Assembly: GCA_043817235.1 (NCBI GenBank)
Contig: JBDRHA010000006.1
Span: 10,041-74,040, forward strand
Source: Candidatus Shapirobacteria bacterium
Lineage (GTDB): Bacteria; Patescibacteriota; Microgenomatia; UBA12405; BS750m-G30
Direction of reading: 5' to 3'
DNA: 64,000 nt
The notes beneath the pieces were generated by a model, which saw only the letters and a list, made by a program, of their open reading frames with translations, was not told the origin of the DNA and did not search any database. A program made the translations under genes and the position numbers. This document shows positions 13,767 through 62,736 of the stretch, piece by piece (within the stretch, counting starts at the first letter, position 1; the number at the start of each line of letters is the position of its first letter).

Positions 13767-13840
13767 GCGCCCGTAGCTCAGTTTGGCAGAGCACCTGCCT
13801 TTTAAGCAGTGGGTCGGGGGTTCGAATCCCTCCGGGCGCA
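13767..13840 (+). tRNA. tRNA-Lys (anticodon TTT)
   Basis: Manual cloverleaf: acceptor GCGCCCG/CGGGCGC, D arm GCTC-AGTTTGGCA-GAGC, anticodon loop CTTTTAA, T arm GGGGG-TTCGAAT-CCCTC. No CCA encoded. Confidence 0.8.
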
Positions 13841-24964: not shown

Positions 24965-26536
24965 TTGGGAAAAGTGAAAAAATTAAAAGATCGTCTTTCT
25001 TTAAAAAGCTGGCTGCTGGTTTTTTTAGGACTAGCTCTTTTTGTAACGGTTTTGCAGATAAATGAAAGTCGGGAACCGCGCGGCGGGGCTCAAGCAGGAG
25101 AGAAGAAAATTGAAGTTGCTTTTTATAATTGCTCTGCTCATGCTTTGATCGTTGGTGAAGAATGCTATCTTTCCGCTTTAGTTCGGGATGAGAATAACCG
25201 ATCTTTGTTTGATGGATATCGCTACGATTGGAGCATTTCTTCAGATGGCTCTTTAGGGGAGCTTATTTTTGGCACTGACAAAATCGCGACTTTAAAAGTG
25301 CGAGAAGCAGGAAAGGGTGATTTAGTGGTGCGGGCGATCTCTGTGAGTACGGGAGAAATTATCACGAGAAGTATTGCTATTACCGCTTTAAATGAGCCTT
25401 TGGAGAGCGATTGCCAAAGAAGAGGGAGCAAAATTTCTGTTACGCCCTTGGGTGGCGAGGGGAAGTGCCATGATGTTCAGCAGGCGATAGATGTCGCTCA
25501 AAGCGGGGATGAGATTTGGTTATCGCCGGGAACATACCAAGTTAAAAGTAAAAACTGTTTTTCACTTCCGTATTCCTCCGAAGGTGGCCCAACATGCGGT
25601 CTAGAGATTAACGGAAAAAATAATCTTAGAGTCTTGTCGTCCTATGGTTCGTCTATTCTGGAATTTCAAGGCAGTGAGCATGGTTTGGTTCTTTCCTCTG
25701 TTAGTAATATTACCCTTAGAGGGTTATCGTTTCAAAAACAAGCGAATAATGCAATATATATTGTTAATAGTAATAATATTCATTTAGAAGAATTATCTTA
25801 CAATCAGTTTAATGGCAATTTAATTCTGGCGGAAGATTCTGATGGTCTGATGATTGCCCGAAATGTTTTTTATAACTATGATGGCCAGGACCAAGTTGAT
25901 TCTTTAGTTTTTTCACATATTCAAGGAGTGATTAGCAATAGCGTGTTTACTGGTGCTAACATTTTAGTCCGGGTAGATTCTGACTCAGATTTACAGGTTT
26001 TGCATAATACTTTTAACCAGAACAGAGCGGCTAGAATTATTCTTGGCGACAATGGGGTAAATAAAGTAGCTTTTAAGAATAATCTCGTCTTGGAAAGTGA
26101 GGGAGAGATGGTAGTTGGATCGCAAGGCGAAGTTGAGGCTGATTATAACTCTTTTTGGAATGTTCATGGGTCAGTTCAAGGGCTGATTAATTTAGGGATG
26201 CACAATATGTACACCGAGCCCAAAATTGATAGTAGAAATTTATGTCTCATGCCCGGGTCGCCCCTAATTGGTGCTGGAGAAAATGGTGGTAATATTGGAG
26301 CTTATTCTGAATGTAGATACCGAGGTTTTTGCTCTTGCTCGTTTGATTTAGGAGTAATTTATAAATCAAAAGGTGACGCCAATTGTGATAACAGGACTGA
26401 CCAAATCGATTACAATGCTTGGTTTGATAGCTTTATTAGAGGAAGTACTAAGTACGGCTTAGAGGCCGATTTAAACTGCAGTGGCAAAGTGAGCATTGAT
26501 GACTATGAGGTCTGGCGGCGATTTTTTATGTGGTGA
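24965..26536 (+). CDS. secreted right-handed parallel beta-helix protein (pectate-lyase fold-like) with a C-terminal dockerin-like double Ca-binding repeat
   Basis: N-terminal TM/signal. Repetitive N.....G.l. beta-helix rungs (NNIHLEELSYNQF...; ISNSVFTGANILVRV...; LHNTFNQNRAARIIL). C-terminal DANCDNRTDQIDYNAW and DLNCSGKVSIDDYEVW resemble dockerin type-I repeats. Confidence 0.55.
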   Translation: MGKVKKLKDRLSLKSWLLVFLGLALFVTVLQINESREPRGGAQAGEKKIEVAFYNCSAHALIVGEECYLSALVRDENNRSLFDGYRYDWSISSDGSLGELIFGTDKIATLKVREAGKGDLVVRAISVSTGEIITRSIAITALNEPLESDCQRRGSKISVTPLGGEGKCHDVQQAIDVAQSGDEIWLSPGTYQVKSKNCFSLPYSSEGGPTCGLEINGKNNLRVLSSYGSSILEFQGSEHGLVLSSVSNITLRGLSFQKQANNAIYIVNSNNIHLEELSYNQFNGNLILAEDSDGLMIARNVFYNYDGQDQVDSLVFSHIQGVISNSVFTGANILVRVDSDSDLQVLHNTFNQNRAARIILGDNGVNKVAFKNNLVLESEGEMVVGSQGEVEADYNSFWNVHGSVQGLINLGMHNMYTEPKIDSRNLCLMPGSPLIGAGENGGNIGAYSECRYRGFCSCSFDLGVIYKSKGDANCDNRTDQIDYNAWFDSFIRGSTKYGLEADLNCSGKVSIDDYEVWRRFFMW

Positions 26537-31474: not shown

Positions 31475-31546
31475 TGCCCCCGAAAGGAATCGAACCTTTA
31501 TCTGTCGCTTAGGAGGCAACTGCTCTATCCATTAAGCTACGGGAGC
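31475..31546 (-). tRNA. tRNA-Arg (anticodon CCT)
   Basis: Reverse complement folds as GCTCCCG-TA-GCTT-AATGGAT-AGAGC-A-GTTGC-CTCCTAA-GCGAC-AGATA-AAAGG-TTCGATT-CCTTT-CGGGGGC-A. Confidence 0.8.
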
Positions 31547-47878: not shown

Positions 47879-47892
47879 TAGTAACGTGCACA

Positions 47893-47925
47893 AAAAAAGC
47901 CTCGAATCCGAGGCTGCTTTAAGCT
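47893..47925 (-). terminator. Rho-independent terminator/attenuator hairpin in the rplJ leader (minus strand reads GCCTCGGATTCGAGGC followed by TTTTTTT)
   Basis: Perfect 6-bp stem GCCTCG/CGAGGC with a 4-nt loop and a 7-T run on the minus strand. Lies between the inferred rplJ promoter and the rplJ start. Confidence 0.55.
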
Positions 47926-48014
47926 TTAAGTTTTTGGCTTTAAGCTAATTACCGCCTCGGTAAGATTTTTAAGTCCCGCAGCTGCGGGAGACTTACTGTC
48001 TTGGGCTAGACTTA

Positions 48015-48043
48015 TATTACCAGATTATCCTTTCTTGTCAAGC
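48015..48043 (-). promoter_or_regulatory. candidate sigma-70 promoter for rplJL: TTGACA, 16-nt spacer, TAATAT on the minus strand
   Basis: Reverse complement of 48038-48043 is TTGACA; reverse complement of 48015-48020 is TAATAT. Confidence 0.45.
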
Positions 48044-53743: not shown

Positions 53744-56215
53744 TTGATATACTGGAAAAAAGTGAAGTTTATAATAAATAAAGAAATATTTAATCGTTGG
53801 CCTGGTTTAAAAATAGGTGTAATTGTCGGTTTAGAAATTGATAATATCAAGGCCAGAAGAAAAAGCCTTGACTTGTTAAGACAAGAAGAGCAAAAACAAA
53901 GAAATAGTTATTCTTTGGAAGACTTAGAAGAGAAAAAAGTTCTTCAAGCCTGGCGCCAGACATATCAGGATTTTGGGGCAAGCTCCAAAAAGTATAGTTC
54001 TTCAATAGAAGCTTTACTAAAAAGAGTTCTTTCAGGCAGTGTTCTTCCAGATATTAATCCCTTGGTAAACTTTTATAATTATCTTTCTTTAAAATACTGC
54101 CTTCCTTTGGGAGGAGAAGACTTAGACAAAATTAAAGGAGATATTTCTCTTGCCTTTGCCGTTGGCGAGGAAAAAGGGCAATATATTGGTTCTGATAAGA
54201 TTGAGGCTGCTCTTCCCGGAGAAGTAATTTATAAAGATGAATTAGGATTTATTTGCCGCCGTTTTAACTGGAGGGAAGCAGATCGGACTAAGTTTACGAC
54301 TCAAACTAAAAATGCAATCTTGATTGCCGAGTACTTACCCGAGGGCGAGTTTTCCCTATTTGATCAAGCAGGAGAAGAATTGGCCAAGATAGTTGAGGAG
54401 GAGCTGGGTGGAAAGACTTTAAAAATTATTTTAGATAAAAAAAATCCCGGTTTTGAGTTTAAGTTTTCTTCGAAAGCGAGCTTGAGAGCAGAAAAAGAAA
54501 AAGTAATTTATACTCCATCGGCGGGGTGGATGGTCGAGGAGAAACTAAAAATCTTGCTTGCCAAAGCAGTAAAAGATATTTGGGGCAAGAAAATTAGTAA
54601 AAAAGAAATTAATATTGAGCACCCGACGATAGCTAATCACGGCGACCTTTCGTCTAATTTAGCTTTAATTTTAGCCAAAGAACTTAAAAAATCTTCCCAA
54701 GAGCTTGGCCAGGAGCTTCTTTCCTATTTTAATAAACAAGAAATTTCCATGATAGAAAAAATTGAATTTGCTTCACCAGGATTTTTAAATTTTTGGTTGA
54801 CTCCCCGATATCTGACTTCCGAAGCAAAAAAAATTTCTAACCAAAAGAGCTTTGAGAAAGAAATGCGGGAACTTGGCAAGGGCAGGACTGTAGTGATTGA
54901 TTATTCGGCCCCGAATATTGCTAAAGCTTTTGGCATTGGCCATTTGCGCTCGACGAACATTGGCCAGGCAATTTACAATCTTTATTCTTTTCTAGGCTGG
55001 AAAACAATTGGCGACAATCACTTGGGCGATTGGGGAACGCAATTTGGCAAGCTGATTGTCGCGATTCAAAAGTGGTGGAGAAAAGATTTGAACAAATTGA
55101 CAATCAATGATTTAGAAAAGCTTTATGTCAAATTCCACAAAAAAGAGAAGCAAGACAAAAGATTAGAAAAGGAAGGCCGGCTTTGGTTTAAGAAATTAGA
55201 AAAGGGGAACAGAGAGGCCAAAAAAATCTGGCAATGCTGTGTAAATATTTCTTTAAAAGAATTTGACCGTGTTTATCAGCTGCTGGAAATAAAGATTGAT
55301 TATGCGTATGGCGAGGCTTTTTATCATTTTAAAGGCTGGATGGAGAAAGTAGAAAAAGATTTGGGGAAAAATAATCTTTTGGAAAAAAGCCAAGGAGCAA
55401 CAGTAATAAAGATTCCCGGTTTTAAAGTGCCTGGGATGATGATTAAATCAGATGGAGCAACTACTTATTTACTGCGAGATATGGCGACCCTGTTTTTTAG
55501 GAAAAAGACTTGGAATCCGGATTTAATTATTTACGAGGTAGGGGCGGATCAAAAATTTCACTTTCGCCAACTTTTCGCCGCCGCTCAAAAGGCCGGTTAC
55601 TTTCAAAAAGAGCAATTAATTCACGTTGCCCATGGTTTAATCCGCTGGAAGCATGCCAAGTTTTCAACACGCAAGGGAGATACGATCCATTTAGAGGATA
55701 TTATAAAAGAGGGGATTAAAAAAGCCGGAAAGCTGGCTGAAAAAAAAGACCGAAAGATTGCCCAAGCAGTAGGGATTGGGGCAATTAAATTTAATGATTT
55801 AAAGCAAGAGCCGGAAAAAGATATTATTTTTGACTGGGATAAACTATTAGCTCTCAATGGCTACAGCGCGCCCTACTTGCAGTATACTTATGCTCGCTGT
55901 GCTTCAGTAGAAAAAAGGGCAGGCAGTAGTAAGCTTACGGTTCAAAGCCAAAAGCTGAATGCCGAAGAAATTAATTTGCTAAGAATTTTTTACCAGTTTC
56001 CCGAAGTGATTTTGGCAGGGGCGAACTTTTTTGCTCCGCACCTGCTGGCCCAGTATTTGTTTAAGCTTGCCCAAAGCTTTAATTTGTTTTACCAAAAAAA
56101 TAGAATTATAGAAGAAGAACCAAATTATTTTAGATTATTTTTAACCAAGACTACCGGGCAAATCTTAAAAACAGGCTTGAGAATTTTGGGTATTCCGGTT
56201 TTAGAAAGGATGTAA
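53744..56215 (+). CDS. argS: arginyl-tRNA synthetase fused to a ~280-aa N-terminal extra domain (B3/4-like)
   Basis: From about residue 290: HPTIANHGDLSSNLALILAK (N-terminal Arg-RS add-1 domain); SAPNIAKAFGIGHLRSTNIGQAIYNLYSFLGWKTIGDNHLGDWGTQFGKL (class I HIGH region); C-terminal DALR anticodon-binding region. Total 823 aa versus about 550-600 for typical bacteria. Confidence 0.9.
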   Translation: MIYWKKVKFIINKEIFNRWPGLKIGVIVGLEIDNIKARRKSLDLLRQEEQKQRNSYSLEDLEEKKVLQAWRQTYQDFGASSKKYSSSIEALLKRVLSGSVLPDINPLVNFYNYLSLKYCLPLGGEDLDKIKGDISLAFAVGEEKGQYIGSDKIEAALPGEVIYKDELGFICRRFNWREADRTKFTTQTKNAILIAEYLPEGEFSLFDQAGEELAKIVEEELGGKTLKIILDKKNPGFEFKFSSKASLRAEKEKVIYTPSAGWMVEEKLKILLAKAVKDIWGKKISKKEINIEHPTIANHGDLSSNLALILAKELKKSSQELGQELLSYFNKQEISMIEKIEFASPGFLNFWLTPRYLTSEAKKISNQKSFEKEMRELGKGRTVVIDYSAPNIAKAFGIGHLRSTNIGQAIYNLYSFLGWKTIGDNHLGDWGTQFGKLIVAIQKWWRKDLNKLTINDLEKLYVKFHKKEKQDKRLEKEGRLWFKKLEKGNREAKKIWQCCVNISLKEFDRVYQLLEIKIDYAYGEAFYHFKGWMEKVEKDLGKNNLLEKSQGATVIKIPGFKVPGMMIKSDGATTYLLRDMATLFFRKKTWNPDLIIYEVGADQKFHFRQLFAAAQKAGYFQKEQLIHVAHGLIRWKHAKFSTRKGDTIHLEDIIKEGIKKAGKLAEKKDRKIAQAVGIGAIKFNDLKQEPEKDIIFDWDKLLALNGYSAPYLQYTYARCASVEKRAGSSKLTVQSQKLNAEEINLLRIFYQFPEVILAGANFFAPHLLAQYLFKLAQSFNLFYQKNRIIEEEPNYFRLFLTKTTGQILKTGLRILGIPVLERM

Positions 56216-56217
56216 AA

Positions 56218-56778
56218 ATGCCGACTAGAGCCGAAAGTAACATAACAAGGACAGAAGAAAAAATTAGCAGGGAAGCCAACTACTTTTTTCGTTTAACTGG
56301 ATCAGAGACGGCCTGTTTTTTACTTGCTTGCGCTAGAGCCTTGGAAGGAAAAAAAAGATTTTGTTTTAATCTTTATTTTTACCCAACCGGCAATGCAAAG
56401 GTAGGGGTTGACAGTGCCGATTTAGCGCGAGAAGGTTTGCGTTGTTGGCGAGATTCCGGATTATCCGAACTTTCAGCGAGCTTTTATGCTAAAAGCTATC
56501 AGCTTTTGTATTGTTTCGCCCAGGTAGTTGCTTCTGGCGAAAAAGTCAGAACATTGACTTCAGGGGATGAAATTACTTTAGAAGTGCTAACCGAAACATA
56601 TCCGGAGCAGAATTTGGCAGGTTTGTTTCGCGGCCTACATTCCGGCAGCAGACATTTAATTGATTCTCAGCCAGAGTTATGCTCAACAAGAGTCATCCTG
56701 GTCGATGTTTGGGAAAACAAGTTTTCTGATGGACAAAGGAATGAATTAAGCGGGATGGCGCCGGGTAATTTATTTTAA
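56218..56778 (+). CDS. hypothetical protein
   Basis: 186-aa ORF 2 nt after the argS stop. Confidence 0.35.
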   Translation: MPTRAESNITRTEEKISREANYFFRLTGSETACFLLACARALEGKKRFCFNLYFYPTGNAKVGVDSADLAREGLRCWRDSGLSELSASFYAKSYQLLYCFAQVVASGEKVRTLTSGDEITLEVLTETYPEQNLAGLFRGLHSGSRHLIDSQPELCSTRVILVDVWENKFSDGQRNELSGMAPGNLF

Positions 56779-57021
56779 CCGTGCAAATAATTCAGAATCT
56801 CTAGTGGTGATAGGTAAGAGGGTAAAAAACATTTTGCGACGTGGAAGTGGTGAAATTACCCCTGGTTTTTAATTCTTTCCTATAGATTAGTGGTTTTTAT
56901 TCTGCTGATAAATTTTGATACATTAATTGCTACTTGACACTTTTCCGTGGTTGTTTTTTACTAAGAAGCTTTCTTTATCTGCCCGATAAGTTTTTAGTGA
57001 GTTTAATATTGTATTAAATCT

Positions 57022-59097
57022 ATGTTCCGCGCCAAAAAAGAAATTAAAATTAAAAAAATCAAAAAAAGGAGTGGAAAAATTGTCCGCTTCGCGCCTTCTA
57101 AGATTGAGCGAGCAATTCATCAGGCTTTTAAAGCTGCTGGCGAGGGTGATAGAAAAAAAGCTAAGCTGCTAACCCAAAAGGTAATCAAAGAACTGGAAAA
57201 ACGCTTTAATTCTACTATTGTTCCTGAGGTGGAACAGGTGCAGGATATTATTGAAGGAATTTTCCAAAGACATAATCTGGAAAAGACGCTTAAGGCTTTT
57301 ACTTTATATCGGGAATTGCACCGCAAACTGCGGGATATTTCATCATTAGTGGACTCCGATGAGCTAATTGAGAAATATTTAGATCATAGCGATTGGCGAG
57401 TAAAAGAAAATGCCAACATGACCTACTCTCTTCAGGGATTAAATAATCATGTGGCAAGCATAATTTCTTCTAACTTCTGGCTGAATAAAATTTATTCTCG
57501 GGATATTCGAAAAGCTCACGCCCAAGCTGATATTCATATTCATGACTTAGCTTCACTTTCTCCTTACTGCACTGGTTGGGATTTAAAAGACCTGCTTATT
57601 AAGGGGTTTGGGGGAGTGCCCGGCAAAGTAAACAGCAAGCCGGCCAAACACTTTGGTGCGGCTTTGGGTCAGCTAGTTAACTTTTTCTACACCATCCAAG
57701 GAGAAGTGGCGGGAGCGGTTGCTGTTTCTAACTTTGATACTTATCTGGCTCCTTTTATTCGCCTTGATAAGCTTAAATATTCCGAAGTTAAGCAGGCAAT
57801 GCAGGAATTTCTTTTTAATATGAATGTGCCTACTCGGGTTGGTTTTCAAAGTCCTTTTACTAATGTTACCTTGGATTTAAGACCGACTAAAACAGTTGGA
57901 GAGGAGGCAGTTATCATCGGCGGTAAGCCGACTAAACACAAATATAAAGAATTTCAAAAAGAAATTGACATCTTTAATCAGGCATTTGCTGAAGTAATGA
58001 TGGAAGGAGACGCGCAAGGCCGGGTTTTTACTTTTCCCATTCCCACTTATTCTATTACCAAGGACTTTGATTGGGATAACCCGAAGCTGGAGCCGGTTTG
58101 GGAGATGACCCGAAGGTATGGCGTGCCCTATTTTTCTAACTTTGTCAATTCGAGCATGGATCCGGATGACGTTAGAAGTATGTGTTGTCGGTTGCGGCTA
58201 GACAATCGGGTTTTAAGAAAACGCGGCGGTCTTTTTGCCGCCAACCCGTTGACAGGCTCTTTGGGAGTAGTGACGATTAATTTATCGCGCATTGGCTACC
58301 TAGCTAAAAAAAGAGGAGGCAGTGAAAAAGACAAAAAAAATCAATTTTTGAAAATCTTAAGACAGATGATGGATCTAGCCAAAGACTCTTTGGTTACCAA
58401 AAGAGAAATGGTAGAGCAATTTACTAAACAGGGTCTTTATCCTTACTGTCGGTTTTACTTGGCTGATATTTATGAGCGCAATAATGTTTATTGGAAAAAC
58501 CACTTTAATACGATTGGTCTAAATGGGATGAATGAAGCCTTGATTAATTTATTGGGAGCATCTATCGCCGATTTTCAAGGAAAGGAATTTGCTTTAGAAA
58601 TAATGAGGTTTATGCAAGATAGAATTTTGGATTATCAAAAAGATACTGGAGAAATGTTTAATTTAGAGGCCACCCCGGCTGAAGGAACAAGCTACCGCTT
58701 TGCTCAAATTGATAAAGCTAAATATCCTAAAATCAAAGCGGCTAACGAGAAAGATGTTCAGAATAAAAATATTCCTCCTTTTTATACAAACTCTACCCAT
58801 CTACCGGTGGATTATACGGATGATATTTTTGAAGCTCTAGATCATCAAGACGATCTTCAGTGCATGTATACCGGCGGAACGGTTTTGCATGGCTTTTTGG
58901 GAGAGAGTCTGCCCGACACAGGGAGTGTCAAAAGTTTGGTAAAGAAAATAGCCCAGAACTATAAACTTCCTTATTTTACCCTTACTCCTACTTTTTCAAT
59001 TTGTCCTACCCATGGTTATCTTAAGGGGGAGTGGAAGTATTGTCCTAAATGCGATGAAGAAATTGGTTATTCTAAAAAAAAGAAAGGAGGTAAATAA
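57022..59097 (+). CDS. nrdD: anaerobic ribonucleoside-triphosphate reductase (class III) catalytic subunit, lacking the glycyl-radical tail
   Basis: N-terminal ATP-cone (KIKKRSGKIVRFAPSKIERAIHQAFKAAG); large barrel domain; C-terminal Zn-ribbon-like CPTH...CPKC. The ORF ends before any RVxGY glycyl-radical motif. Confidence 0.85.
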   Translation: MFRAKKEIKIKKIKKRSGKIVRFAPSKIERAIHQAFKAAGEGDRKKAKLLTQKVIKELEKRFNSTIVPEVEQVQDIIEGIFQRHNLEKTLKAFTLYRELHRKLRDISSLVDSDELIEKYLDHSDWRVKENANMTYSLQGLNNHVASIISSNFWLNKIYSRDIRKAHAQADIHIHDLASLSPYCTGWDLKDLLIKGFGGVPGKVNSKPAKHFGAALGQLVNFFYTIQGEVAGAVAVSNFDTYLAPFIRLDKLKYSEVKQAMQEFLFNMNVPTRVGFQSPFTNVTLDLRPTKTVGEEAVIIGGKPTKHKYKEFQKEIDIFNQAFAEVMMEGDAQGRVFTFPIPTYSITKDFDWDNPKLEPVWEMTRRYGVPYFSNFVNSSMDPDDVRSMCCRLRLDNRVLRKRGGLFAANPLTGSLGVVTINLSRIGYLAKKRGGSEKDKKNQFLKILRQMMDLAKDSLVTKREMVEQFTKQGLYPYCRFYLADIYERNNVYWKNHFNTIGLNGMNEALINLLGASIADFQGKEFALEIMRFMQDRILDYQKDTGEMFNLEATPAEGTSYRFAQIDKAKYPKIKAANEKDVQNKNIPPFYTNSTHLPVDYTDDIFEALDHQDDLQCMYTGGTVLHGFLGESLPDTGSVKSLVKKIAQNYKLPYFTLTPTFSICPTHGYLKGEWKYCPKCDEEIGYSKKKKGGK

Positions 59098-59237
59098 TGA
59101 AAAAAATAAAGAAAAAGGAAAGAACTAAATGCGAAATTTTCTCTCGGATTGTTGGCTATTTACGCCCCATTTCTCAGTGGAATGCCGGAAAAGAAGCAGA
59201 GTATAATAAAAGAGTGACCTATACTATGGCGAAATGA
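59097..59237 (+). CDS. 46-aa ORF encoding the NrdD C-terminal glycyl-radical motif (MKKIKKKERTKCEIFSRIVGYLRPISQWNAGKEAEYNKRVTYTMAK)
   Basis: SRIVGYLRP..WN.GK..E...R matches the class III RNR glycyl-radical tail (RVCGY...W..GK..E). The ATG overlaps the nrdD TAA (TAATG) in the -1 frame. AAAGGAGG lies 7 nt upstream. The stop overlaps the nrdG start. Confidence 0.55.
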   Translation: MKKIKKKERTKCEIFSRIVGYLRPISQWNAGKEAEYNKRVTYTMAK

Positions 59238-59926
59238 AATTAGCGGGCCTGCAAAAAACTACTTTAATTGATTTTCCGGGAATAATTGCCTGTAGCGTTT
59301 TTACCCTAGGATGTAATTTTCGGTGTCCTTTTTGTCATAATAAACAGCTAGTTGACCCAAGTTTTTTTTCTGAATTAAAAATAATCAGCCTTGGCGACTT
59401 CTTTTCTTTTTTAGCAAAAAGAAAAAATATTTTAGATGGAGTTTGTATTACTGGCGGCGAACCTACTCTACATAAGGACCTGGTTTCCTTTATCAGCCGA
59501 ATTAAAGATTTGGGATTTAAAATAAAACTGGATACTAACGGAAGCAACCCAGTAGCAGTAAGTAAGCTTATTAAAAATAATTTGGTTGATTTTTTCGCTC
59601 TTGACTTCAAAACTAGCTGGGAAAACTATCCAAAATTAACTGGCTTTAAAAATACAGAAAAAATTAAAGAATCAATTAGATTAATATTAAAAGCTAAAAA
59701 AAAGCTGCAGATAAGAACAACTCTTGTGCCCAAAATTCATAACCAGAAAGTCTTGCTTGCCATGGCCAAAGAGCTAAAAGAATTTGAGGGCAAATTTACT
59801 TGGAAATGGCAGGACTTTCGGCCGAGAAATACACTTGAGCCTCGATTTAGTAAGCTAAAATCTTATTCGGGTAAAGAAATTAAGGAGTTAACTTTTGCTT
59901 GTCAAAAGATTATTCCGGTCGGGTAA
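59234..59926 (+). CDS. nrdG: anaerobic ribonucleotide reductase activating protein (radical SAM)
   Basis: CNFRCPFCHN is the CxxxCxxC radical-SAM cluster motif. Located immediately after nrdD. Confidence 0.85.
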   Translation: MKLAGLQKTTLIDFPGIIACSVFTLGCNFRCPFCHNKQLVDPSFFSELKIISLGDFFSFLAKRKNILDGVCITGGEPTLHKDLVSFISRIKDLGFKIKLDTNGSNPVAVSKLIKNNLVDFFALDFKTSWENYPKLTGFKNTEKIKESIRLILKAKKKLQIRTTLVPKIHNQKVLLAMAKELKEFEGKFTWKWQDFRPRNTLEPRFSKLKSYSGKEIKELTFACQKIIPVG

Positions 59927-60903: not shown

Positions 60904-60977
60904 GGGCCCGTGGCTCAGTTGGCTAGAGCGCCTCGATGGCATCGAGGAGGCCGCCGGTTCAAGTCCGGCCGGGTCCA
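60904..60977 (+). tRNA. tRNA-Ala (anticodon GGC) with G3:U70 identity pair
   Basis: GGGCCCG-TG-GCTC-AGTTGGCTA-GAGC-G-CCTCG-ATGGCAT-CGAGG-AGGCC-GCCGG-TTCAAGT-CCGGC-CGGGTCC-A. Confidence 0.8.
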
Positions 60978-62408: not shown

Positions 62409-62666
62409 ATGTTTTACGTTTATGTCTTGTTGAGTATAAAAGACAAGAATATTTATACTGGGCTTACCTCTAATTTGCTGGCTAGACTAACCGAACATAA
62501 AGAAGGTTTAGTGAGGTCAACCAGAAGCAGAAGACCGGTAAAATTGATATACTATGAGGCTTATTTATCTAAGGTAGACGCTTTACGCAGAGAAAAATAT
62601 TTAAAATTGGGCGGCAAAGCCAAGACGACTTTAAAAAAACAAATACAAGAATCTTTATTATTTTAG
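62409..62666 (+). CDS. GIY-YIG nuclease superfamily protein (second copy; 85 aa)
   Basis: MFYVYVLLSIKDKNIYTGLTSNLLARLTEHKEG...KLIYYEAYLSKVDALRREKYLK. The TAG stop overlaps the 5' end of tRNA-Trp. Confidence 0.8.
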   Translation: MFYVYVLLSIKDKNIYTGLTSNLLARLTEHKEGLVRSTRSRRPVKLIYYEAYLSKVDALRREKYLKLGGKAKTTLKKQIQESLLF

Positions 62667-62736
62667 GCCCGTGGTGAAATGGCTATCATCAACGTCTCCA
62701 AAACGTTGGTTTCAGGTTCGAGTCCTGACGGGCCTG
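62665..62736 (+). tRNA. tRNA-Trp (anticodon CCA)
   Basis: AGGCCCG-TG-GTGA-AATGGCTA-TCAT-C-AACGT-CTCCAAA-ACGTT-GGTT-TCAGG-TTCGAGT-CCTGA-CGGGCCT-G. Good acceptor, anticodon and T arms. Confidence 0.75.

Follow-up and report, generated by a model that had tools for sequence, protein, structure and literature searches.

Gene organization of the nrdD locus

We studied the nrdD-nrdG locus in a 64,000-nucleotide stretch of Candidatus Shapirobacteria DNA (contig JBDRHA010000006.1, positions 10,041 to 74,040, forward strand; hereafter the window). The class III ribonucleotide reductase (RNR) gene is found there in two pieces: an nrdD body of 691 aa (57022..59097) that lacks the glycyl-radical loop, and a separate open reading frame (ORF) of 46 codons (59097..59237, the mini-ORF) encoding the glycyl-radical loop and the C-terminal tail of NrdD. 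We consider it highly probable from the sequence comparisons that the locus encodes a class III RNR truly made of two polypeptides, with a 5-kDa radical subunit that would be activated by NrdG and dock into the catalytic barrel in trans. This reading starts from gene structure, conservation, separate start signals, purifying selection, the interchangeability of fused and split states, and lone tails encoded by viruses, all of which were observed directly (see below).

All the elements of the locus lie on the positive strand. The body comprises an ATP-cone, the class III RNR barrel and a zinc ribbon, whose zinc-ribbon-like segment (C661-P-T-H664 ... C674-P-K-C677, 59002..59052) is its last conserved structural element. 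Directly 3' of the ribbon is a D-E-E-I-G-Y motif (59053..59070), a hallmark of tail-less bodies. The nrdD product ends in ICPTHGYLKGEWKYCPKCDEEIGYSKKKKGGK, followed by TAA at 59095-59097, so that the body terminates 14 residues past the zinc ribbon, and the R-V-x-G-Y-type motif is located instead on the 46-aa ORF, in the -1 frame relative to nrdD. Stop and start overlap as TAATG (59095..59099), and a Shine-Dalgarno (SD) sequence AGGAGG (59085..59090) is positioned within the last nrdD codons, 6 nt 5' of the ATG. The mini-ORF in turn ends in an ATGA overlap (59234..59237), where its TGA (59235-59237) meets the ATG (59234-59236) of nrdG, a gene for a 230-aa radical S-adenosylmethionine (SAM) activase (59234..59926; Pfam Radical_SAM and Fer4_12) that scored 189 bits against TIGR02495 NrdG2 (cut-off 131). 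By the two overlaps and the AGGAGG site, the body, tail and activase genes are translationally coupled. The mini-ORF product is MKKIKKKERTKCEIFSRIVGYLRPISQWNAGKEAEYNKRVTYTMAK; its predicted radical residue is Gly20 (codon 59154-59156), inside SRIVGY, and its Cys12 is encoded at 59130-59132. The original prediction, made from the letters of the window, had described the nrdD stop between zinc ribbon and radical motif, the overlapping -1-frame ORF, its NrdD radical motif and its overlap with nrdG, and each of these was borne out.

Domain content and residue conservation

Pfam family NRDD (PF13597) was partitioned between the two ORFs with neither overlap nor gap: the body matched profile positions 1-531 of 562 (aa 129-679, E 5.9e-177, 590 bits; cut-off 26.2) and the mini-ORF positions 532-562 (E 1.3e-9). 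Such a clean division indicates that the gene layout is not a product of chance. NCBIfam PRK08270 was divided likewise (body 2-652 of 684, mini-ORF 649-683), the body scoring 980 bits (cut-off 548), with 502 bits against TIGR02487 (cut-off 326). The Pfam ATP-cone was located at body aa 12-101. The mini-ORF matched PF13597 alone in the Pfam scan, without a Gly_radical or IPR011140 domain of the pyruvate formate-lyase (PFL) type.

At the sequence level, the finger-loop residues S386, M387, C388 and C389 were invariant in an alignment of 95 body homologues, as were the zinc ligands C661, H664, C674 and C677. Eleven tail positions (C12, E13, S16, R17, G20, P24, N29, G31, K32, E35 and R39) were invariant in 42 stand-alone homologues. 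Compared with Thermotoga maritima NrdD (4COI), the body aligned through residue 609 and the tail profile with residues 614-645 (from DEYMRIVGYLVPVS onwards; RIVGY), so that the break falls in the handful of residues linking the zinc ribbon to the barrel-entering strand. The glycyl radical domain of Prevotella copri NrdD consists of a Zn site, then a buried Gly loop, then a surface tail, and is highly mobile (PMC11226230); this flexibility fits a chain break at that point.

The tail core is under purifying selection: we counted 9 synonymous and 0 non-synonymous differences between relatives L024 and L028, and 9 and 2 between L056 and L064, and over all tail pairs the mean pS (synonymous) was 0.86 versus a pN (non-synonymous) of 0.21. 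These figures bear on gene decay, in which the nrdD body would be a truncated pseudogene and the mini-ORF a meaningless remnant. It is established enzymology that an NrdD body without the glycine is inactive on its own, as decay would have it; against this, the body is full length with catalytic residues invariant in the 95 homologues, the tail is strongly constrained, and the operon structure is kept over candidate phyla radiation (CPR) bacteria, DPANN archaea, Halanaerobiales and Thermodesulfobacterium. We thus assign decay a negligible probability.

Sequencing error and recoding as alternatives

Next to a real split of NrdD, the original prediction had offered a single-nucleotide frameshift or a programmed -1 shift, and had pointed to nearby A runs as possible homopolymer errors. 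An error in sequencing or assembly, with a single continuous nrdD as the true gene, would suit the A-rich homopolymers on both sides of the junction (A8 at 59074-59081 and A7 at 59100-59106), and one extra A in the AAA at 59092-59094 would indeed merge the frames. However, the frame of the mini-ORF is closed by a TAA at 59091-59093, so an indel in the A8 run cannot rejoin it to nrdD, and the ORFs are joinable solely by a change within 59092-59096. An independent per-run assembly (Logan SRR27458547, 2,758 nt) had an identical junction, its one single-nucleotide polymorphism falling at window position 59293, inside nrdG. Moreover, in L001, the closest of the split relatives (82% identity), the two ORFs meet differently, at an ATGA with TGA as the stop; the split is present in hundreds of independent assemblies as well as in isolate genomes, and the mini-ORF owns an SD sequence and an ATG. 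An indel is therefore hardly credible.

Programmed -1 frameshifting or stop-codon read-through, either of which would yield a fused NrdD, finds a foothold in a dnaX-like slippery heptamer, A_AAA_AAG, in the nrdD reading frame (59076..59082), and in the single in-frame stop that separates body and tail in four relatives (L012, L014, L016 and L055). A -1 slip at the heptamer would reach the stop at 59091-59093 after 3 codons, swapping the last few residues only, and there was no slippery site within 59092-59097. The heptamer is probably a by-product of the Lys-rich end of the body. The resemblance to dnaX-type frameshift genes thus extends to the zero-frame heptamer, but here the -1 frame is not open into the downstream ORF and, whereas a conserved frame relation is expected in such genes, the tails of the relatives are found in frames 0, 1 and 2, up to 82 nt off or past nrdG. 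Since frame, gap and gene order all vary, no one recoding mechanism covers all the layouts, while independent initiation does; we rate recoding as very improbable.

Split nrdD loci in cellular relatives

We compared 81 related loci, one of them that of the window and the others from 80 genomes. The gene was split at the same structural point in 45 of them and fused in 36. The split loci belong to CPR bacteria (Shapiro-, Dojka- and Saccharibacteria, Microgenomates), to DPANN archaea (Woese-, Pace-, Micr-, Aenigm- and Nanoarchaeota) and to the cultured genera Orenia, Halanaerobium and Thermodesulfobacterium. Among them the tail ORF occupies relative frames 0, 1 and 2, with junctions ranging from the -1 overlap (TAATG) through the -4 overlap (ATGA) and larger overlaps to gaps of up to +82 nt. 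The TAATG junction of the window, proposed earlier as a feature to be sought in related genomes, recurred in L019, and ATGA was found in L001, L004, L026 and L071; what is conserved is thus the split point, while the junction itself varies. Nearly all tails start with ATG, and an SD-like site lies 3-12 nt upstream in 29 of the 44 split relatives. In long cellular contigs the order is [nrdR]-body-tail-nrdG. Instead, body-nrdG-tail is the order in five loci of Halanaerobiales, cultured Orenia and Halanaerobium among them, with 718-835 nt from body to tail; because nrdG intervenes, recoding cannot produce a fused protein there. With the closing TAA at 59091-59093, the three frames and the variable spacing, this order removes the frameshift reading of the original prediction.

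The split is also prevalent among single proteins, the tail being absent from 97 of the 120 closest body homologues (>= 69% identity). A profile built from 42 tails matched at least 7,996 proteins significantly, and the best 120 matches, coming from NCBI, JGI, ENA, Tara and Logan, were all stand-alone proteins of 40-72 aa, the length range also of 129 database tail homologues. RefSeq holds such proteins from isolates (e.g., WP_133513801.1 and WP_018247994.1). Orthologues are therefore far from uniformly unsplit, and comparison strongly supports the real split that the original prediction had listed first.

Viewed locus by locus, each cellular locus has exactly one tail motif, and the body next to a separate tail has none of its own. 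Extra tail copies beside fused genes, which would be true cellular spare parts, were not found within 3 kb on either side. NrdG does not differ in type or length between split and fused relatives, which speaks against a distinct activase for the split systems.

Several split nrdD operons have a thioredoxin-reductase-like Pyr_redox_2 gene nearby (L247-L249, 597-1716; L246, 6388-7308), which hints, from gene content, at a thioredoxin-dependent, NrdD2-like reductant system. Many close homologues of the body reach 830-1,150 aa or more (P0164, P0167, P0169, P0170, P0172, P0181, P0184, P0186, P0188 and others); several of the long bodies carry a barrel-inserted intein with LAGLIDADG domains (PF14890, PF14528), so that some nrdD genes are intein-invaded and also split. 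Long ORFs of this group are also present in L230 (2,553 codons) and L246 (1553-4996).

Motifs of the split form and its evolution

Tail-less bodies share a motif past the zinc ribbon: 96 of the 97 tail-less close homologues read C..C-D-x-E-I-G-[YFW], followed by a variable basic stretch. D-x-E-I-G-[YFW] is confined to split or long-linker forms and is missing from the short-linker fused relatives, which read C-x-x-C-x3-C-E-V-Y-S-R. On the tail side, Cys12, before E-x-x-S-R, was present in 44/44 split cellular tails as compared with 24/36 fused and 30/47 phage tails; it was also invariant in the 129 database tails, a set biased by the search profile. Two functions were considered for these motifs and set aside. 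A zinc tether, with Cys12 completing the zinc site, is not supported, given the four ligands that the body already has and the T, N, A or V often found at this position in fused and phage sequences. A second radical site at D-E-E-I-G-Y was judged unlikely, because its Gly is 5 residues past the zinc ribbon versus 12 in fused enzymes, and neither the Arg nor the downstream RP..WN.GK anchor is present. The motif weakly resembles the C-E-x-x-S-R-I-V-G-Y of the tail; as evidence of origin by duplication, this is a short resemblance only.

In a neighbour-joining tree of bodies the split loci make up one large part. Fused forms are nested within it, namely L006 and P0131 (83% identical), the latter reading ...CPKCDEE-KQRTKCEIFSR..., and one split locus (L055) lies inside the fused clade. 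Such nesting indicates repeated interconversion, and the fused and split states thus appear to have replaced one another more than once. In P0163, P0168, P0174, P0176 and P0185 the complete split layout is contained within a single ORF.

The main rival reading is a functionally neutral split, in which the connector tolerates a break and the tail remains permanently bound as in the fused enzyme, with no role in exchange or repair, the broken form having spread by drift and horizontal transfer. Nesting in both directions (L006, P0131, L055) speaks for it, as do the identical type and length of NrdG in both states and the fact that no extra docking domain was seen in body or tail. It accounts less well for the predominance of the split over a large, ancient section of the family (97 of the 120 nearest homologues), for the split-specific D-x-E-I-G-[YFW] (96/97 bodies) and Cys12 (44/44 split versus 24/36 fused), or for the viruses that encode the tail alone (see below). 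On balance we regard a neutral split as unlikely, though clearly the strongest of the alternatives.

Stand-alone tails in viruses

Scanning IMG/VR with the tail profile, we obtained 80 loci, 65 of them with stand-alone tails; the viral contigs concerned are L082-L240. We fetched 10 kb per side (1.19 Mb in total) and searched it with a hidden Markov model made from 81 bodies. In 76 of the 80 phage loci both NrdD body and NrdG were absent within 10 kb on either side, and the remaining 4 were ordinary fused nrdD genes. The neighbours of the phage tails encode terminase, portal, SNF2 helicase, HNH endonuclease, replication protein O (RepO) and LysM lysin. The viral orphan tails measure ~40-145 aa, many with an N-terminal NGDLxLDNGxxIPAEKR extension. 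The phage tails are mostly devoid of a zinc ribbon, which two of them have (L216, L232). Three phage contigs carry two distinct tails each, separated by ~10.6 kb and sharing 69% and 72% identity, respectively, with the query: IMGVR_UViG_3300025600_000014 (L165, L169), 3300025750_000007 (L166, L172) and 3300002565_000008 (L167, L173).

A similar protein is found in the archaeal virus ANMV-1 (KP703175.1, 38,465 nt; L241/L242), whose record at 25525-25959 encodes a 144-aa zinc-ribbon-plus-tail protein (AJP62049.1) with PF13597 NRDD as its sole Pfam match; neither body nor activase was found anywhere in the whole record. Lone viral tails make sense only if they can join a pre-existing body, and they therefore support action in trans.

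Taken further, NrdD-type tails may constitute an unrecognised family of autonomous, exchangeable protein cofactors, serving as a detachable radical subunit, cheaply replaced after oxygen damage, in many CPR, DPANN and Halanaerobiales organisms, and in their viral orphan form plugging into the host NrdD body by way of the host NrdG and so sustaining deoxyribonucleoside triphosphate synthesis during infection. We advance this wider proposal tentatively, as having somewhat less than an even chance of being right.

Comparison with known systems

Canonical single-chain NrdD/NrdG systems (T4, Escherichia coli, T. maritima 4COI, P. copri 8P23) have in common with the locus of the window the ATP-cone, the barrel with its Cys finger loop, the zinc ribbon, the SR-x-V-G-Y...W-N-x-G-K loop, the adjacent radical-SAM activase and, in some loci, nrdR. 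They differ in having one chain, which here is cut between zinc ribbon and Gly loop, the radical segment becoming a separate protein of 40-70 aa with its own start signals and, in the Halanaerobiales, lying beyond nrdG.

The original prediction had likened the mini-ORF to GrcA/YfiD. YfiD/GrcA of E. coli and Y06I of phage T4 are autonomous glycyl-radical spare parts for PFL (PMC8683613; PMC13450708). The likeness holds in that both are small free-standing homologues of the C-terminal glycyl-radical region of a large enzyme, presumed by analogy to be activated by the activase of that enzyme and to act in trans, and viral versions exist in both cases. It fails in other respects: YfiD and Y06I are homologous to PFL and have 14 kDa, whereas the tail is homologous to NrdD and has ~5 kDa; and YfiD is a back-up to an intact enzyme, whereas in cells the tail provides the one radical site of an enzyme whose body lacks it, and is hence an obligate subunit rather than a spare. 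The phage orphan tails would be the closer parallel to YfiD and T4 Y06I.

Other RNR classes offer partial parallels. In the split class II RNR NrdJa/NrdJb of Pseudomonas aeruginosa (Crona et al. 2015, as cited in PMC9669993), the RNR catalytic subunit is likewise encoded by two adjacent genes whose products must assemble. The class and the break point are different, and NrdJb has a C-terminal zinc-finger and IscU-like redox module, not the radical site. Class I RNRs (NrdA plus NrdB; PMC9669993) also carry the stable radical on a different polypeptide from the catalytic barrel. The subunits are not homologous, and in class I the radical is delivered from a ferritin-like subunit by long-range proton-coupled electron transfer, whereas the loop of the split class III enzyme should sit within the barrel, just as it does in ordinary NrdD.

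Proposed mechanism and significance

From homology to NrdD and the precedent of YfiD and Y06I with PFL (PMC8683613), we infer that the two chains assemble, and that the tail is activated by NrdG, in trans. Body, tail and activase would be made together from the coupled genes. The 691-aa body would supply the ATP-cone, the catalytic barrel with the Cys finger loop and the zinc ribbon, and the 46-aa product would be the radical-bearing subunit, contributing the buried loop with Gly20, which NrdG would convert to a glycyl radical, as well as the C-terminal tail, which runs across the top of the barrel in fused enzymes. The chain is cut in the short connector from the zinc ribbon to the strand leading into the Gly loop. 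In fused enzymes this region must already swing out of the barrel for activation. The tail could be activated by NrdG either free or docked, and would then insert non-covalently beside Cys388/Cys389 and pass the radical on to the active site in the manner of ordinary NrdD.

Oxygen irreversibly cleaves glycyl radical enzymes at the radical glycine, and the one remedy known is the YfiD/Y06I spare part for PFL. In a two-chain enzyme the oxygen-sensitive part would probably be exchangeable, so that a destroyed tail might be replaced without remaking the 80-kDa body, possibly a selective advantage. It is plausible that the break serves the replacement of oxygen-damaged tails.

Several points weigh against a two-chain enzyme working in this way. 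Expression, assembly, radical formation and activity of the split enzyme are all predicted from its genes. An AlphaFold2 model of the concatenated body and tail (95 homologues) was moderately confident, its mean predicted local distance difference test (pLDDT) score being 77.5, and scored below 50 in both the Gly loop (709-713) and the Cys loop (386-394), so that docking is without structural support. An obvious tethering device was not found in body or tail, and an unlinked 46-aa peptide may bind weakly. The proposed mechanism gives no part to the invariant Cys12 or to the D-x-E-I-G-Y motif of the body, the often repeated change from fused to split or back fits a selectively neutral break just as well, and the phage contigs are mostly genome fragments, some of which may have a distant body gene.

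In the openly searchable literature, subscription-only papers being outside this scope, we found neither a split NrdD nor an autonomous radical protein of the NrdD type described, and the tail genes are present in public annotation without interpretation. Reviews from 2021 and 2026 know spare parts for formate lyases only (PMC8683613; PMC13450708); YfiD and Y06I, both for PFL, are the only validated ones, and others may exist for further glycyl radical enzymes (PMC8683613). If the wider proposal on autonomous tails is right, they would be the first spare-part system beyond formate lyases. A naturally split class III RNR would answer, for an essential enzyme, whether other glycyl radical enzymes have spare parts, a question explicitly raised in the field. 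Conceptually it would parallel class I RNRs in placing the radical on a separate subunit, and it would suggest viral auxiliary genes of a new kind. It would also bear on DNA synthesis in the reduced-genome CPR and DPANN organisms under fluctuating oxygen. Occurrence in cultured Halanaerobium and Orenia makes the system experimentally accessible, and the radical subunit could be labelled, mutated and titrated apart from the catalytic barrel. For annotation, a tail-less nrdD should not be called a pseudogene or partial, nor should ORFs of 40-70 aa be discarded.

Other features of the window

The G+C content of the window was 40.9%, and its nearest relatives are CPR genomes of the Shapirobacteria/Microgenomates type. 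The ~800 nt 5' of nrdD (56218-57021) hold no convincing gene, a 186-aa ORF there being without Pfam match. Upstream of nrdD, Rfam searches gave zero matches even at E <= 1, and a scan for promoters and terminators gave a signal no higher than the shuffled background. Unlike relatives L246 and L247, the window has no nrdR directly ahead of nrdD. The arginyl-tRNA synthetase gene at 53744-56215 (positive strand) encodes 823 aa with an unusual architecture, an N-terminal B3/4 domain (PF03483, aa 69-200) preceding the usual domains. Ordinary RNA genes were also located in the window: tRNAs at 13767-13840, 31475-31546, 60904-60977 and 62665-62736, and an L10 leader (RF00557) at 47884-48023.

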